DNA of 63,699 bases from Candidatus Heimdallarchaeota archaeon (GCA_019057815.1 JAHLWR010000022.1:1-63699), one strand, 5' to 3'; positions 55,700-62,009 are shown, counted from the stretch's first letter. The notes: generated by a model from the letters alone, not told the origin. Numbers and translations: made by a program.

Positions 55700-56167
55700 A
55701 TGTTATCTGAGGAGGAATTTTGGCCTAGAATAGCAATAGAGGCGAATGAACTAAGAAAAGAGTTGCCAACTTTCAATCCTATCAATAACAATACTTTAAA
55801 ATGGCTCGGTTTTATTTTTGGCGCCGGTCTTTATGAAGGAGGAGTTTTTGTTTTAGAAATAGAAATTCCAAGAGAATACCCATTTAAGCCTCCAAAAGTA
55901 AAAATGTTGACCAAGATTTTTCATGCAAATGTTTTCGATACACGTATCTGTGTAGGTGTATTAGGTGCAGATTGGACGCCTGCTAATAACTTAGTTGACG
56001 TAATCGAATCCATTCGTTTCATCTTAAGTAGCCCAAATCCAGATGATCCTCTAAATTCAACTGCTGCTAACTTAATGAAGAGAGATCCTAAAGCTTTTAC
56101 AATTAAAGTCCGTGAATATGTCGAAAAACACGCTAATTTTAGTCAAATAGAAAAATTTGGCCTATAA
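55700..56167 (+). CDS. ubiquitin-conjugating enzyme E2
   Basis: YEGG.F, YPFKPPKV, IFHANV...RIC (catalytic Cys), W.PA, PNPDDPLN..AA. Confidence 0.93.
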   Translation: MLSEEEFWPRIAIEANELRKELPTFNPINNNTLKWLGFIFGAGLYEGGVFVLEIEIPREYPFKPPKVKMLTKIFHANVFDTRICVGVLGADWTPANNLVDVIESIRFILSSPNPDDPLNSTAANLMKRDPKAFTIKVREYVEKHANFSQIEKFGL

Positions 56168-56287: not shown

Positions 56288-57118
56288 TTGATGTCGGAAG
56301 AAAAGATCCTTCACAAAGGTTACATTCAAGAAATTTTCTCGTCCTTTCAAGGTGAAGGGGTAGCTTTCGAAGGAAGTTGCTATGGTTTAAGGCAAATATT
56401 TGTTAGATTCGCGGGGTGTCCTTTAGCATTAGGAAAAGAAGGAACTGCTGGTTGTTTATGGTGCGATTCTCCACAAGCTCAAAAAGAGCACCCCAAATAC
56501 TGCTCTATCGAAACAGAAGCTGGAAGTCAACAATTCACAAAAAAAGAGAATCCTATAATTCTAAAGCATGTTTTGGATAACATTCAACAATTAACAACAA
56601 AGGACCTTCATTCTATTAGTTTAACAGGGGGAGAACCATTACACCAACCAAAATTTCTTAAAGATATTATCTTAAACTTAAAACAAAAAAAGTACAAAAT
56701 ATTCCTTGAAACCGCGTATGCTGAAAATCTCCAATTTCTAGAAGAAATAGCTCGTAATATTGACTTTGCATGTGTTGATATAAAAGATAAAAGTGCAGAA
56801 GCAACAACAAAGTGGGAAGAGTTAGTGGAAAGAGAGGTTAAGATGTGCAGGATTTTAAGAGATGCAGGAACTAAAGTTTTTTCTAAAATTGTTCTATCTA
56901 AATCCTCAAAAATTAGTGATTTCGAGTTGGTCGCAAAACTGTGTGGAGAAGTAAATATACCTATGGCAATTCAATTAGTTTCACCAACAAAGAAGTCAAA
57001 CGTACAGTCACTTACTTGGGATCAACTAGTTAGTTTCACTGAAACAGCTGCAAAGTATTTGCCTCCTGAAAAAATTGGTATATCAGCTCAGGTTCATAAA
57101 CTATTAAATATTCTATAA
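56288..57118 (+). CDS. queE: 7-carboxy-7-deazaguanine synthase QueE
   Basis: EIFSSFQGEG, FVRFAGC...CLWCD, LTGGEPL, QVHK. Confidence 0.9.
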   Translation: MMSEEKILHKGYIQEIFSSFQGEGVAFEGSCYGLRQIFVRFAGCPLALGKEGTAGCLWCDSPQAQKEHPKYCSIETEAGSQQFTKKENPIILKHVLDNIQQLTTKDLHSISLTGGEPLHQPKFLKDIILNLKQKKYKIFLETAYAENLQFLEEIARNIDFACVDIKDKSAEATTKWEELVEREVKMCRILRDAGTKVFSKIVLSKSSKISDFELVAKLCGEVNIPMAIQLVSPTKKSNVQSLTWDQLVSFTETAAKYLPPEKIGISAQVHKLLNIL

Positions 57119-57139
57119 TAATAAGAGGTAGATAATCGA

Positions 57140-58111
57140 ATGTCTTTTCACAGTGAAAAAATGTCTGATATTCAAGCTGCTGATGCTAGAATTAAACTTG
57201 GCTTAAGGCGAGTTGGAGTTACTAATATACCAAAAATAATCAGAAGGAAATGGAAGGGTCAATATAACGAACTCTCTGCAAAGGTTGACGTTTTTGTAGA
57301 TTTAATTCCATCTCAAAGAGGAATACACATGTCTCGCAACATTGAAGTGATAAATGAAGTGATAAATGAAGTGACATCATCTTTGATGGGAGAATTAATC
57401 AGCAACACTGAAGAATTATGCGCAAAAATAGCTAAAAAAGTATTGCTTGCACAACCAGGTGCAAAACATGCAGAAGTAAGGTTAAAAGCTGATTACGAGG
57501 CAGAAACCTTTTCAGAAGCACTTTGGAAGAAAAAATTAAGTGTTCATACTCTTAGAGCTGGAGCAAATGCTGAGCGTACAGAAGAGGGTATAAACATAAT
57601 TAAGATTATAGGAGCTGAAGTAGAAGGGACAACAGTATGTCCTTGCTCACAAGAATTGTCAAAGGATTATGCTAAAGAACAACTCAAGAAAAAAGAATTT
57701 AATGATGAACAAATTAAAACAATTGTTGATATTATCCCCCTGGCTTCCCATAATCAAAGGTCAAAAGCTATTTTACTTTTAGAATTGCCCACGAGTGCTA
57801 AGAGAGTTGAGCTAGATGACATCATAAAAATATTAGAGATAAGCATGAGTGCGCCACTTCATGAATTATTAAAACGAAAGGATGAACAAGCAGTTGTTCT
57901 TTACGCACATAGTCGTCCTAGTTTTGTAGAAGATGTAGTACGTACAATACTCTACAATGTAGCTTTCAAATTTGGTTATTTGCCTCCTGAAACGGGTATT
58001 TATGTTAAACAGACAAATTTTGAGAGCATTCATCGTCATAATGCTGTAGCTGAGATTAGAACAACATTAGAAATATTAAAAAAGCAATTAGAGGGGAAAA
58101 AAGGAAAATGA
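57140..58111 (+). CDS. mptA: GTP cyclohydrolase MptA/FolE2 family
   Basis: RVGV, RGIHMSR, TVCPCS, HNQR, LLKR.DE, FVEDVVR, ESIH.HNA. Confidence 0.92.
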   Translation: MSFHSEKMSDIQAADARIKLGLRRVGVTNIPKIIRRKWKGQYNELSAKVDVFVDLIPSQRGIHMSRNIEVINEVINEVTSSLMGELISNTEELCAKIAKKVLLAQPGAKHAEVRLKADYEAETFSEALWKKKLSVHTLRAGANAERTEEGINIIKIIGAEVEGTTVCPCSQELSKDYAKEQLKKKEFNDEQIKTIVDIIPLASHNQRSKAILLLELPTSAKRVELDDIIKILEISMSAPLHELLKRKDEQAVVLYAHSRPSFVEDVVRTILYNVAFKFGYLPPETGIYVKQTNFESIHRHNAVAEIRTTLEILKKQLEGKKGK

Positions 58112-58725
58112 AAAAAGAAGAACTATCACCATATACTATAGTAATTGAAAATTTTCAACAAAAAATTAAGTATGATGGATCCCAAATACTAGCTCATTAC
58201 ACCGCAGAAAAACATGATGTTCTAGGAAACAGTATTTTGCTTTTCAGAGGAAATATGGAATTATCACCAAAAGAGATGGTTGACATTAAAGACGTTCTAC
58301 GTGAGTCTCACTTGGCAAAGGTGCTAATCAGCTCAGATGATGCTTTACATATAATCATAGAGGAATTTGATATTCAACCTCCCAACTTAGAAATCGTATA
58401 TTATCGTTTACGTGTATTAGCGCAACTGATTATCGAACAGCTTCAATTGAAGGGAGTTAAAGTAGCTAGAAAAGGCACTGATTTATTTATAAACGAGAAA
58501 AAACTAAACGTCGGTATTGCAACGATTAGCCAAACAAGTTGTAAAATTCATTTTGGTTTAAATTATTCAGATACAGGAATCCCTTTGCATGTAAATGCAA
58601 TTGGGCTCAAAGAACTAGGTTTTATGGAAGAAGATTTAGAAGAATGGTTACTAACAATAGCTAAAAATTATATAAACGAAATTAGTAAAATAAAAAACGA
58701 TATAGTTAAAACAAAGCCCATCTAG
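58108..58725 (+). CDS. DUF366 family protein (lipoate/biotin-ligase-like fold)
   Basis: YDGSQ, SI..FRG, MVD.KDV, LHII.E.FD, R.GTDL...KKL.V.IAT, IHFG.N. Confidence 0.85.
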   Translation: MKKEELSPYTIVIENFQQKIKYDGSQILAHYTAEKHDVLGNSILLFRGNMELSPKEMVDIKDVLRESHLAKVLISSDDALHIIIEEFDIQPPNLEIVYYRLRVLAQLIIEQLQLKGVKVARKGTDLFINEKKLNVGIATISQTSCKIHFGLNYSDTGIPLHVNAIGLKELGFMEEDLEEWLLTIAKNYINEISKIKNDIVKTKPI

Positions 58726-58733
58726 GTGAAATT

Positions 58734-59192
58734 ATGAAACTAAGAGTATCTGGTGATAAACTAACTATTGCATCTGCACACATGCTCGCAAAACATGATA
58801 AATGTGCTCGTATGCACGGACACAACTATTTTATAGAAGTTGAAATTGAGGGAGAACTTAATGAAAAAAGTATGGTCATTGATTTTAGCGAATTCAAATC
58901 ACGAGTTAGTAAGATAATAAAAAAATATGATCATAAAGTGCTGATACCCTTTAACAGCAAAAATTTCAATATTGATATAAATGATGAACAAGTTACAGTT
59001 TCATCATGTGAAGGTAAAGTATACCGTTTACCAAGAGATGATGTTGAATTTTTACCTTTAGAATCAACAACCGTTGAGTTATTGTCAAAGTTTATTCATG
59101 GCTTAATCAAAAAAGACTATCCACAATTTAAAATAACAGTAATAATGTCAGAAACACCAACAAATGTAGCAATATATACAGAAGATAAATAA
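58734..59192 (+). CDS. queD: 6-carboxytetrahydropterin synthase QueD
   Basis: SAH, C.R.HGHNY, IDF, DHK, TTVE, SETP. Confidence 0.93.
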   Translation: MKLRVSGDKLTIASAHMLAKHDKCARMHGHNYFIEVEIEGELNEKSMVIDFSEFKSRVSKIIKKYDHKVLIPFNSKNFNIDINDEQVTVSSCEGKVYRLPRDDVEFLPLESTTVELLSKFIHGLIKKDYPQFKITVIMSETPTNVAIYTEDK

Positions 59193-59237
59193 ATAAAATG
59201 GATTTTAATAAAAATATAAGCATTTAAGAGGGATAAA

Positions 59238-59957
59238 ATGAGTCGAGCAATTGTTCTCTTTTCAGGAGGTTTAGACTCTACAGCTTGTTTATATTGGGCT
59301 TTAAAGAATTATAATGATGTTATCTTGCTAAGTTTTCTTTATGGGAGTAAAGAAGATAAAGCAATTAAAATATGTAATAGCACATTTTCATCTCTTTTTT
59401 CCCTTAAAAATCAAATTATTGATTTACCCTTCCTCTCCAAATTTCTAGCTAAATCAAAATCTAGTTTATCAGTAAAGGGCAGCAAACCCCCTGAGTTCTC
59501 ATCTTTCAAAGATTTAAAAAATGAAGAAATCATTGCACAAACAGCGAAACAAGTTTGGGTTCCTGGAAGAAATCTCCTTTTCCTCTCTATAGCAGCTTCA
59601 TTGGCTGATAGTTTCTCAAATCCAACAGACATAATTTTTGGAGGGAATAAAGAAGAAGCAGCCACTTTTCCAGATAATACAATTGACTTTGTTGAGAAAA
59701 TGAATGATAGCCTAAGATTTGGTTGTATAAATAAAGTTGTGATAAAAGCCCCTTTTATTAGAAAAACTAAAGACGATATTGTTACTTACTTAGCTAAGAC
59801 TAATGCGCAAGTTCAATTTTCTTCATCGTGTTACAATGTTACTGATTGGGAAGAGAGCAATATAGCAGTTCACTGTGGTGTTTGTGAATCATGTTCAAGA
59901 CGTAAAAGAGCTTTCAAGAATGCTAAGATTAAAGATGTGACAGAATATAAAAATTGA
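59238..59957 (+). CDS. queC: 7-cyano-7-deazaguanine synthase QueC
   Basis: SGGLDS, VWVPGRN, FPDN, SCY, HCG.CESC..R. Confidence 0.95.
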   Translation: MSRAIVLFSGGLDSTACLYWALKNYNDVILLSFLYGSKEDKAIKICNSTFSSLFSLKNQIIDLPFLSKFLAKSKSSLSVKGSKPPEFSSFKDLKNEEIIAQTAKQVWVPGRNLLFLSIAASLADSFSNPTDIIFGGNKEEAATFPDNTIDFVEKMNDSLRFGCINKVVIKAPFIRKTKDDIVTYLAKTNAQVQFSSSCYNVTDWEESNIAVHCGVCESCSRRKRAFKNAKIKDVTEYKN

Positions 59958-60005: not shown

Positions 60006-60656
60006 ATGGTGCTTAGAGTATTTAAAGTCAGAAAAGATGGAACATATAGTGAAATAGAAGCAACAAGGGAAGCGCTTCAGAAAGAGCATGGTTCTTTTTT
60101 GATGGTAGATAGAGGAGATAAGAAAATCTATGTTTATAAGAAATTAGGAATCTCAAAATCATTAGCTTATGCAGCTGCTAGAGCAGCTACTAATCTAAAT
60201 ACTAGAAGAGGATCAAAATATAAAGTTGTGAATATCGAACAAGAAGAGCAATTCAAGTTTCTTAGCAATATCTTTGGTGAGACTGAGGAAACTGTCAAAC
60301 CAATTGAAGAGATATCTCCTCTTGAAACTGTTGAAGCTGTAAAGTCATCTTTAATCTATGGTGAAAAAACTTCAACAAAACGAGCAGTTACCAAGCAAAA
60401 AACACCCCAAATATCTGAAAAAACCCTAAAACCACAAGAACAAATCATTATTGCAAAAAAAAGAACTGTTCCAAGTATAAAAATAGCTATAAATGAGGAA
60501 GCTTATGATAGCGAAGAGATTGTTAAAACATTAGCAAGTAGAATGCTATATAATATTAATATTGATACAGCAAAAAATATGATCAAACCGCCAAAAGGTC
60601 AACTTAGATCTATGCTACTAAAACAAATTGATGCCTTACTCGATGAAATATACTAA
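60006..60656 (+). CDS. single gelsolin-like domain protein with C-terminal extension
   Basis: FLMVD....IYVY..G.S....YAAARAA..L......KVVNIEQEE...F pattern of the gelsolin fold. Confidence 0.65.
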   Translation: MVLRVFKVRKDGTYSEIEATREALQKEHGSFLMVDRGDKKIYVYKKLGISKSLAYAAARAATNLNTRRGSKYKVVNIEQEEQFKFLSNIFGETEETVKPIEEISPLETVEAVKSSLIYGEKTSTKRAVTKQKTPQISEKTLKPQEQIIIAKKRTVPSIKIAINEEAYDSEEIVKTLASRMLYNINIDTAKNMIKPPKGQLRSMLLKQIDALLDEIY

Positions 60657-60680: not shown

Positions 60681-62009
60681 TTATTCATTTCTCTGGAGCT
60701 TAGCTATAAAAAAACCTTCACTGTTATGTAGATGGGGGTACATTTCTTGTGCCTTATTTTCTAGCAGACTAGATTTGAAACCTATAAAGGGAATAGTATT
60801 TCTCAGAGAGAAGTTTTGGTGAGAAGCAAGAAAAGACCTAATTACATGATGATTTTCAGCATGAAACAACGAACATGTAGAATAAACTACAATTCCTTGG
60901 TTTTTAACCATCTTTGCGGCTGCTTCTAATAATTCAGTTTGAAGTTTAGTATACAATCTTAAATCTCTTCTCCTTAAACGCCATTTAATCTCAGGTCTAG
61001 AATTGAAGGTACCTGATGAGGAACAAGGAGGATCTATCAAAATTTTATCAAAAAAACTCATGAATTTTTCGGGAAGATTTCTTGAATCAGATTGTATAGA
61101 CTCTACATTCTTAACACCAAGTAATTCCATACGCTCCAATAAAATACGCATCCTATCTTTATCTATATCTATGGCAACCAAACCTTTTTCATCACCCATC
61201 ATGGAAGCAATTTGCGAGGTTTTACTACCTGGTGAAGCACATAAATCTAAAACATTTTCCCCAGGAGTTGGATCTAAAACAATTGGCACCAAAACTGAAG
61301 CTTTTTGCTGTATCACAATCTTGCCATTCTTAAACTCTTGAAGCTGGGGAATTGGTTTTGCGTTAGAATCACCAATTTTTAGTAGACCTACAATGTCTTT
61401 ATCTTCCTCATACACAATATTATTCTCGTCGAGAGAAGCCTTCACTTCTTCAAGTGTGGTTTTAAGAGTATTAACTCTTATGTAGGTTGGTAAACTAAAC
61501 AGGAGAGAAGATAGCAAATCTTTTGTGAAACTCTCTCCCCACTGTTCAATAAATGTTCTCACAATCCACGTTGGTGTAAAATATTGAAGTGAAATCTTTG
61601 AAGATTCATCTAAACGGTTTACATATAGATCTTCTTCAGTTACATTACTAATTGCTGAAAGAATGTTTAGAAGTTTTACATTCATATATGTAAAATAATG
61701 TGGGGATAAAAGATCATAAACTTGGTCCAAATTTTTTTTCTCAAACTTTAGATAATAGGTAGCAAGACGCAATATTGCTCTCATCTGAAAAGGTATTTTT
61801 TTAGTTGAGAATGCGGATGAACTTAGTTTAATATAGAGATCTACGACATTCAAACGTTTAATTAATTCAAGAACTGTATAATATAACTGAGACTCATCTG
61901 CTTTGGATGCTTGATATTCTTCAATTACTGAACGCAGTGCAACTCGAGCAGATCTACCTGCGTCAATTTCACTCAAACAGTTTATTATGTTAGAAATAAC
62001 TTGTTCCAA
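60681..62009 (-). CDS. RsmB/NOP2-family RNA m5C methyltransferase
   Basis: RVNTLK, LDLCASPGSKT, DPPCSSSG, VYSTCSL, EGFFIAKL. Confidence 0.93.
   Translation of the reverse strand: MEQVISNIINCLSEIDAGRSARVALRSVIEEYQASKADESQLYYTVLELIKRLNVVDLYIKLSSSAFSTKKIPFQMRAILRLATYYLKFEKKNLDQVYDLLSPHYFTYMNVKLLNILSAISNVTEEDLYVNRLDESSKISLQYFTPTWIVRTFIEQWGESFTKDLLSSLLFSLPTYIRVNTLKTTLEEVKASLDENNIVYEEDKDIVGLLKIGDSNAKPIPQLQEFKNGKIVIQQKASVLVPIVLDPTPGENVLDLCASPGSKTSQIASMMGDEKGLVAIDIDKDRMRILLERMELLGVKNVESIQSDSRNLPEKFMSFFDKILIDPPCSSSGTFNSRPEIKWRLRRRDLRLYTKLQTELLEAAAKMVKNQGIVVYSTCSLFHAENHHVIRSFLASHQNFSLRNTIPFIGFKSSLLENKAQEMYPHLHNSEGFFIAKLQRNE

Follow-up and report, generated by a model that had tools for sequence, protein, structure and literature searches.

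The synthesis of preQ0 from GTP is held to be fully solved with four enzymes, which in the canonical pathway of Escherichia coli, Bacillus subtilis and Haloferax volcanii are FolE or MptA, QueD, QueE and QueC. CPH4 is the product of QueD and the substrate of QueE, and CDG is the product of QueE and the substrate of QueC. The pathway feeds queuosine and archaeosine in tRNA, 7-deazaguanines in the DNA of phages and bacteria, and a number of antibiotics. Accessory proteins are also known in archaea: in Crenarchaeota without ArcS, preQ0 that is already part of tRNA is the substrate of GAT-QueC and of the QueF-like archaeosine synthases (PMC5485725).

The locus analysed here lies in a 63,699-nucleotide stretch of DNA, which we refer to as the window, from a Heimdallarchaeaceae MAG. 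Five open reading frames on the plus strand occupy positions 56288-59957 and encode, in this order, a QueE-like radical SAM protein, MptA, DUF366, QueD and QueC. Direct reading of the sequence bore out the tight packing described in the original prediction: the mptA and DUF366 genes overlap in an ATGA (ATG at 58108-58110, TGA at 58109-58111), and only 8 bp separate DUF366 from queD. The remaining gaps measure 21 bp and 45 bp and each holds a Shine-Dalgarno-like purine run. An AT-rich, TATA-like stretch is found about 25 bp upstream of the queE-like gene, and no Rfam family matched between 54 and 61 kb. The arrangement is not due to chance: judged from coordinates, each of the 21 further genomes sampled from the family has the same gene order, and six of these were checked gene by gene.

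All four enzyme types of the canonical pathway are encoded here too, that of QueE by a candidate gene, and QueD and QueC show their defining signatures. The locus departs from the canonical pathway in its GTP cyclohydrolase, which is of the MptA type and encoded inside the operon; in its QueE subfamily, which attains the cut-off of no curated NCBI model for QueE; and in the additional conserved gene DUF366. The mptA gene (57140-58111, plus strand) encodes an archaeal type IB GTP cyclohydrolase, which scored 279.6 bits with TIGR00294 (cut-off 220) and 220.9 bits with PF02649. No other PF02649 match and no PF01227 (FolE) match turned up in the host genome, and mptA is on this evidence its sole GTP cyclohydrolase I gene. 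Judging from these profile scores, the GTP cyclohydrolase I step appears to be supplied within the operon by this MptA equivalog. The product of queD (58734-59192, plus strand), a 6-carboxytetrahydropterin synthase of the PTPS-I type, reached 85 bits with PF01242 and 77 bits with TIGR03367, the latter under its cut-off of 89; the alignment places its CxxxHGH motif at C24, H28 and H30 and reveals an archaeal insertion of about 25 residues. The queC gene (59238-59957, plus strand) for 7-cyano-7-deazaguanine synthase matched PF06508 with 175.6 bits and TIGR00364 with 155.7 bits (cut-off 150.3).

The queE-like gene (56288-57118, plus strand) encodes a radical SAM protein, putatively of the 7-carboxy-7-deazaguanine synthase type, with N-terminal motifs typical of QueE and matches to PF04055 and Fer4_12. 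As its start, the ATG (56291) is more plausible than the TTG (56288). The top NCBIfam matches of this protein are QueE models, albeit all far under their cut-offs, since the curated QueE models gave at most 50 bits against cut-offs of 200-300. None of 45 sequences, namely the window QueE and 44 que-linked homologues, reached the curated QueE equivalog cut-off. The alignment of these homologues nevertheless retains the QGEG, Cys-cluster and TGGEPL motifs of the window QueE throughout, and a QueE of this type was always que-linked in the loci examined.

As in Euryarchaeota, where TgtA, ArcS and RaSEA use preQ0, the same three proteins are encoded in this genome. TgtA (TIGR00432, 463 bits) and RaSEA (TIGR01210, 320 bits) scored above their cut-offs and ArcS (NF040592, 404 bits) just below its cut-off of 440; the genes for ArcS and RaSEA adjoin each other. 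The tRNA-guanine transglycosylase-family and ArcS matches are on contigs other than that of the window, and QueF was not found anywhere in the host genome, in keeping with the earlier observation that the window holds no queF, tgtA or arcS. Like GAT-QueC and the QueF-like enzymes, DUF366 is a protein tied to archaeal 7-deazaguanine genes; unlike them, it has another fold and distribution, and it occurs here in a host that possesses ArcS and RaSEA. It had been suggested that DUF366 opens another way to the formamidine of archaeosine by ligating an amine, lysine or a carrier to CDG or preQ0. A fold of the ligase type and a conserved lysine would suit such chemistry, as would a window with neither arcS nor tgtA. 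However, the genome already encodes TgtA, ArcS and the adjacent RaSEA, and DUF366 is common in bacteria, where three cultured Bacillota that bear it have Tgt and QueA, enzymes of the queuosine route. We therefore regard this route as extremely improbable.

The DUF366 gene (58108-58725, plus strand) encodes 205 residues that matched PF04017 with 182 bits (cut-off 29.9) over profile positions 6-184 of 184. Its closest structural relative is PH0223 from Pyrococcus horikoshii (PDB 2DDZ), a protein of the same family and length class with the same invariant residues (E 5.5e-32, 36% identity). The AF2 model of the window DUF366 (pLDDT 95.6) superimposed on 2DDZ with a Z-score of 27.6, a TM-score of 0.86 and an rmsd of 1.4 Å over 187 residues. 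We know of no function assigned to PH0223. A literature search found no paper on DUF366, and no biochemical or genetic data on any DUF366 protein, so the earlier statement that the family has no assigned function stands. We considered the Thermococcus kodakarensis thermosensitive mutant tk2145 as a DUF366 gene; it also appears in papers on tetraether-lipid enzymes, nothing was found to tie it to DUF366, and it was set aside. A feature search of the ESM Atlas that left out DUF366 clusters returned nothing usable.

Beyond its own family, the DUF366 model matched biotin protein ligases (BPLs) and LipB with Z-scores of 12.6-13.0 over 154-174 residues at a TM-score of about 0.6, and Foldseek placed it with the BPL_LplA_LipB superfamily (E 5e-7); more distant neighbours belong to a class II synthetase-like fold group. 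These matches, together with 2DDZ, uphold the biotin/lipoate-ligase-like fold that had been proposed. DUF366 shares the catalytic-domain fold with Group I BPLs (Aquifex aeolicus 2EAY/3EFS, P. horikoshii 1WNL, Methanocaldococcus jannaschii 2EJ9), LplA and LipB. An alignment of 39 DUF366 sequences revealed eight invariant residues, Y22, G24, G48, D59, K132, H148, N152 and K201. A profile match to Aquifex BPL (E 9e-5), spanning the C-terminal half only, puts K132 on the lysine of the BPL KxAGxLVE motif and N152 on the asparagine of GxGxN, and the Asp-hydrophobic-Tyr stretch preceding the lysine aligns as well. That lysine is critical for adenylation in BPL (PMC2384007). In contrast to BPLs, the 39-sequence alignment lacks the GRGRxGRxW biotin/ATP lid motif, with only F-x-G48 conserved there, and the full 205 residues align to BPL residues 1-176 only, without the C-terminal cap domain; His148, Asp59, Tyr22 and Lys201 are invariant features of DUF366's own. 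DUF366 thus amounts to the catalytic domain of the biotin/lipoate-ligase superfamily standing alone. Its use of ATP is uncertain because the Gly/Arg adenylate lid has no visible counterpart, and it does not belong to the BPL, LplA or LipB enzyme families because no biotin- or lipoyl-acceptor protein is encoded nearby.

To our knowledge, every characterised member of the matched fold family is a ligase or transferase that modifies proteins, and BirA doubles as a ligand sensor. DUF366 could accordingly be a regulator that senses a pathway metabolite, or a modifier that attaches a group to a lysine of a pathway enzyme. Fusions of Clp_N to DUF366, which suggest a protein-interaction module, point in the same direction, as does the self-association of PH0223 (PMC1414084). 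However, DUF366 is devoid of the biotin-ligase cap domain, and no gene for a carrier or acceptor domain was conserved near DUF366 among the Asgard and bacterial loci compared. Either role seems distinctly unlikely to us.

The gene neighbourhood of DUF366 in other genomes, on which the original prediction hinged, proved to be rich in que genes. DUF366 was directly upstream of queD in all 15 Asgard loci (the window and 14 others, from five families), the same pair was present in another Asgard-like contig, and Methanobacteriaceae had the row DUF366-queD-queE. Among 65 bacterial DUF366 loci, 52 had a que gene no more than two genes away; the next gene downstream was queE in 47, the next gene upstream was queC in 35, and queD occupied position -2 in 28. 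In split operons, the bacterial DUF366 remained with queE (14 loci) and the archaeal one with queD or queE, queC being located elsewhere in three of the archaeal families. Furthermore, QueC-DUF366 fusions were found in three distinct protein clusters. A pattern search built from a six-sequence bacterial alignment matched DUF366 in 391 stretches of a species-representative genome collection; the single match in a phage database was left aside, as the region of that record looks bacterial. The linkage of DUF366 to que genes is firm and extends over Asgard archaea, Methanobacteriaceae and no fewer than eight phylum-level groups of bacteria.

DUF366 probably aids the pathway because it travels with preQ0 genes in both archaea and bacteria. 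It is not required, however: in 15 of the Asgard genomes sampled, a QueE of this type occurs without DUF366, and one of them (G002) has a matching queE-mptA-queD operon that lacks it. Of the 201 Asgard genomes sampled, 31 carry DUF366, and each of these has the window-type QueE as well. The set of MptA, QueD, QueE and QueC occurs without DUF366 in many Asgard genomes, and the control archaeon H. volcanii has MptA and QueC without it. This dispensability in related lineages would be expected if DUF366 had a function unrelated to preQ0 and were merely carried along in operons. Some archaeal copies also lie away from que genes: DUF366 does not adjoin them in a Thermococcales-like contig and in one other archaeal contig, so that the Thermococcales-like homologue differs from the window copy inside its preQ0 operon. 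Yet the linkage is repeated in different gene orders in each of the groups named above and is accompanied by fusions, and a passenger is very unlikely because such a recurrent pattern is hard to explain without a shared function. The conserved linkage and the QueC fusions support the view, already put forward in the original prediction, of DUF366 as a candidate unrecognised component of 7-deazaguanine synthesis, and we consider it likely that DUF366 works in preQ0 synthesis.

Gene order gives DUF366 a partner that varies with lineage among QueD, QueE and QueC. A proposed role was to convert or adapt the MptA product, dihydroneopterin 2',3'-cyclic phosphate, for QueD. The 4-bp overlap of mptA with DUF366 and the mptA-DUF366-queD order held across the family would fit such an adaptor, and M. 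jannaschii and Methanosarcina acetivorans, the two control archaea with DUF366, both have MptA. The phyletic data argue strongly against it, however. FolE (PF01227) is encoded in the same operon as DUF366 in 14 bacterial loci, and the three cultured Bacillota mentioned above have FolE and no gene of the MptA/FolE2 family (PF02649). Conversely, MptA scored above its cut-off in 99 of the 201 Asgard genomes against 31 with DUF366, and the G002 operon contains mptA without DUF366. Moreover, no phosphodiesterase-family fold was among the structural matches of DUF366. There is hardly any likelihood left for this adaptor. DUF366 was also considered as a replacement of QueF, which the three cultured Bacillota lack, but this idea was discarded as a general rule because QueF is present in 20 of 40 diverse DUF366-bearing bacteria.

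DUF366 might instead be a true fifth enzyme, a minimal, ATP-dependent ligase of the biotin-ligase type that activates the carboxylate of CDG or CPH4; it would adenylate (or amidate) CDG and share or take over the first half-reaction of QueC. The fusions to QueC in three clusters and the bacterial loci with queC directly upstream speak for such a role, as do the invariant counterparts of the biotin-ligase adenylation lysine and GxN asparagine and the class II synthetase-like group among the more distant structural neighbours. In the AF2 model of one natural fusion (P0182), the QueC and DUF366 domains are well folded, but the pTM is 0.67 and the linker at residues 243-252 is disordered, so that the model speaks neither for nor against packing of the domains. 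Nevertheless, no pathway step is visibly missing because the associated QueC proteins are full length and reach the QueC equivalog cut-off. Several archaeal lineages keep DUF366 with queD or queE while queC is elsewhere, and DUF366 shows no Gly/Arg lid motif like that of adenylating ligases. A fifth enzyme of this kind is in our judgement unlikely.

We favour an accessory role in preQ0 synthesis. The five genes form a single operon, whose products would convert GTP to preQ0 as a free base through the successive action of MptA, QueD, QueE and QueC. TgtA, ArcS and RaSEA, whose genes lie in other parts of the genome, would then turn preQ0 into tRNA archaeosine. DUF366, conserved yet dispensable, would be the fifth component of this preQ0 module. 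The ligands of the BPL family are carboxylic acids, as are CPH4 and CDG, and the conserved DUF366 pocket, with K132, H148, N152, D59, Y22 and K201, most likely binds one of these two carboxylated intermediates. DUF366 may then either pass the intermediate between QueD, QueE and QueC or activate its carboxylate. We infer its ligand, its step of action and any use of ATP from fold and gene context. A complex prediction for QueE, QueD and DUF366 with alignment inputs gave an ipSAE of 0.00 in two runs without controls and was counted neither way. The specific hand-off of a carboxylate is a tentative reading that we hold to be rather doubtful, whereas the explanation as a whole, with the role of DUF366 in preQ0 synthesis and the hand-off taken together, seems to us nearly balanced, leaning slightly to the doubtful side.

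The presence of DUF366 in preQ0 operons across two domains of life suggests that the textbook pathway is incomplete, the candidate gap being a substrate hand-off, a means of shielding a labile intermediate, or one more activation step. For 2DDZ, an orphan of structural genomics for 20 years, this provides a testable role. The Asgard loci contribute the finding that the constant archaeal neighbour of DUF366 is QueD and not QueC, and the sister lineages with the same operon but no DUF366 offer natural controls. If DUF366 did turn out to be a fifth enzyme, the way in which many archaea, anaerobic bacteria and phages make preQ0 would be mechanistically distinct from the textbook route of E. coli and B. 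subtilis.

The window is one contig (C11) of an Asgard genome of 3.7 Mb with a completeness of 95%. Its interval 56288-59957 is filled by five plus-strand ORFs, and their family matches confirmed the five-gene preQ0 operon with an embedded DUF366 gene that the original prediction had described. The first ORF is a radical SAM gene with QueE models as its top NCBIfam matches, followed by mptA (TIGR00294, 279.6 bits, cut-off 220), DUF366 (PF04017, 182 bits), queD (PF01242) and queC (TIGR00364, 155.7 bits, cut-off 150.3). The encoded QueD carries the CxxxHGH signature of QueD-type (PTPS-I) enzymes (motif as defined in PMC5041015). mptA and DUF366 overlap by ATGA, and 8 bp separate DUF366 from queD, exactly as claimed; purine-rich, Shine-Dalgarno-like runs lie upstream of the internal genes. 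The nearest relatives of this DUF366 are named Heimdallarchaeaceae or Heimdallarchaeota. Directly upstream of the operon lies a ubiquitin-conjugating E2 gene (55700-56167, plus strand; PF00179, E 3.7e-33), which also adjoins que genes in six further loci from the window's family and in G002, another Asgard genome, whose locus lacks DUF366. A 216-aa ORF without a Pfam match follows queC (60006-60656, plus strand), and six loci of the family conserve it at this position. The proteins nearest to it in the Atlas are all hypothetical and from Asgards, and there is a faint gelsolin-like lead. Just downstream, an RsmB/NSUN-type RNA cytosine-C5 methyltransferase is encoded on the opposite strand (60681-62009; PF01189, E 1.2e-55).

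Absence of linkage to que genes in other genomes had been named among the grounds for abandoning the prediction, and strong linkage is what we found in Asgard archaea, Methanobacteriaceae and bacteria. DUF366 occurs in 31 of the 201 sampled Asgard genomes: none of the 21 from the window's family is without it, and the remainder belong to four further families. Moreover, queD is immediately downstream in every one of the 14 fetched Asgard loci. The window's family has the row E2, queE-mptA-DUF366-queD-queC; in families f11 and f22 the row is queE-DUF366-queD, queC being located elsewhere, and families f6 and f3 have only the DUF366-queD pair. In the Asgard genome G196, queC and queE lie together on a contig other than that of DUF366-queD, and one Methanobacteriaceae contig has DUF366-queD-queE. 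Where the archaeal operon is split, DUF366 remains beside queD, with or without queE. Among DUF366-less Asgard genomes, G107 has a DUF6884 gene followed by queC-queD-queE (L124, 4439-6992), and G038, where queC is present twice, has a nucleoside 2-deoxyribosyltransferase-like gene as a queC neighbour (L122, 5015-6124).

A pattern search of species-representative genomes returned 391 stretches encoding a relative of the query. We kept 80 bacterial loci, from Syntrophomonadaceae, Pelotomaculum, Desulfotomaculaceae, WOR-3, Stahlbacteria, Armatimonadota, Planctomycetota, Margulisiibacteriota, Nitrospirota and others; the DUF366 gene was callable in 65, to which the neighbourhood counts refer. A que gene stands at most two genes from DUF366 in 52 of these, the most frequent rows being queD-queC-DUF366-queE(-folE) (25 loci) and DUF366-queE alone (14 loci). 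In bacteria with a split operon, DUF366 remains beside queE. Adjoining queC and DUF366 are fused in some cases, giving QueC-DUF366 proteins in three separate clusters. Clp_N-DUF366 fusions form four clusters, one with queE next; in locus L114 (5001-7800) such a fusion is followed by a queE-like radical SAM gene, with stop and start codons touching, and also by an HGD-D gene (2-hydroxyglutaryl-CoA dehydratase component-like). The sole 'phage' record with a DUF366 match (MW495066.1, 109408-123965) has glyS, mtgA, fabI, engB and fliM around it and looks like bacterial rather than phage DNA.

The first role originally proposed, adapting the MptA product for QueD, was not supported. In the window's genome, searched for both types of GTP cyclohydrolase I, the operon mptA was the only such gene found. 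Canonical FolE (PF01227) is the operon cyclohydrolase in 14 bacterial DUF366 loci, and Thermosyntropha lipolytica, Pelotomaculum propionicicum and Desulforamulus putei have FolE and lack any MptA/FolE2 family member. MptA scores above cut-off in 99 of the 201 Asgard genomes as opposed to 31 with DUF366. G002 has queE-mptA-queD with queC beside it, and its locus, including the neighbouring E2 gene, appears to be that of the window without DUF366. The control genome of Haloferax volcanii likewise has MptA and QueC and lacks DUF366.

The second proposal, an alternative amidination route, found no support in the rest of the pathway either. The genome encodes TgtA (TIGR00432, 463 bits) and ArcS (NF040592, 404 bits, slightly under the cut-off) elsewhere, with RaSEA directly downstream of ArcS (TIGR01210, 320 bits); no QueF was found in it. 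It is thus equipped with the usual pathway of the euryarchaeal type for converting preQ0 to archaeosine, without any missing step for DUF366 to fill. The bacterial DUF366 hosts checked encode the queuosine enzymes Tgt and QueA. We also considered DUF366 as a stand-in for QueF. The three Bacillota named above (G201-G203) encode Tgt and QueA along with the preQ0 operon, but no QueF was found in them, and this applies also to 20 of 40 diverse DUF366-bearing bacteria; the other 20 have QueF, and such a replacement is not general. The QueF-less bacteria may have an as yet undescribed preQ0-to-preQ1 step.

The AF2 model of DUF366 (pLDDT 95.6) superposes on PH0223 of Pyrococcus horikoshii (2DDZ) with a Z score of 27.6. 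Biotin protein ligases and LipB come next (Z 12.6-13.0), followed more distantly by class II synthetase-like cores (Z about 6-7). Over its entire length, DUF366 is equivalent to the catalytic domain of the ligases alone, lacking the cap domain of biotin protein ligases. A 39-sequence DUF366 profile matched the Aquifex biotin ligase at E 9e-5, aligning 'DDLY...KLSVSIAT...H-G-N' with 'NDVY...KKVSGVL...GIGIN', the region of the KWPND, KxAGxLVE and GxGxN ligase motifs. No equivalent of the fourth ligase motif, the GRGRxGRxW lid, is present. Two residues of the aligned region, K132 and N152, are invariant in DUF366; the lysine of the ligase motif is critical for adenylation (PMC2384007). Tyr22, Gly24, Gly48, Asp59, His148 and Lys201 are invariant residues peculiar to DUF366. 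The PH0223 crystal contains six chains, and the protein has been scored as self-interacting (PMC1414084).

The QueE linked to DUF366, archaeal and bacterial alike, forms a subfamily scoring below the cut-off of every curated NCBI QueE model, and in the Asgard sample DUF366 was found only together with this subfamily. The co-occurrence could reflect a functional tie to QueE or mere shared inheritance of the operon. Each of the six genomes sampled from one Asgard genus (G038, C1:2125089-2125979; G047; G064; G070; G088; G028, locus L023) has a queE-like gene whose N-terminal part is interrupted by in-frame stops, most of them TAG, or by changes of frame, which could mean a pseudogene, recoding or an insertion.

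Our literature searches, which did not cover subscription journals, found no paper on DUF366, COG2029 or PF04017, and nothing on the family under QueC or preQ0 with 'domain of unknown function'. DUF366 is dispensable, because fifteen of the sampled Asgard genomes encode the DUF366-linked QueE type but no DUF366. Members of the biotin/lipoate-ligase fold family bind carboxylic acids and, in most cases, adenylate them; CPH4 and CDG, the preQ0 intermediates between QueD and QueC, are carboxylic acids. Together with the retention of queD or queE in split operons and the queC fusions, this suggests that DUF366 is most likely an accessory of preQ0 synthesis, which would bind one of the carboxylic-acid intermediates handled by QueD, QueE and QueC and either hand it on or activate it.
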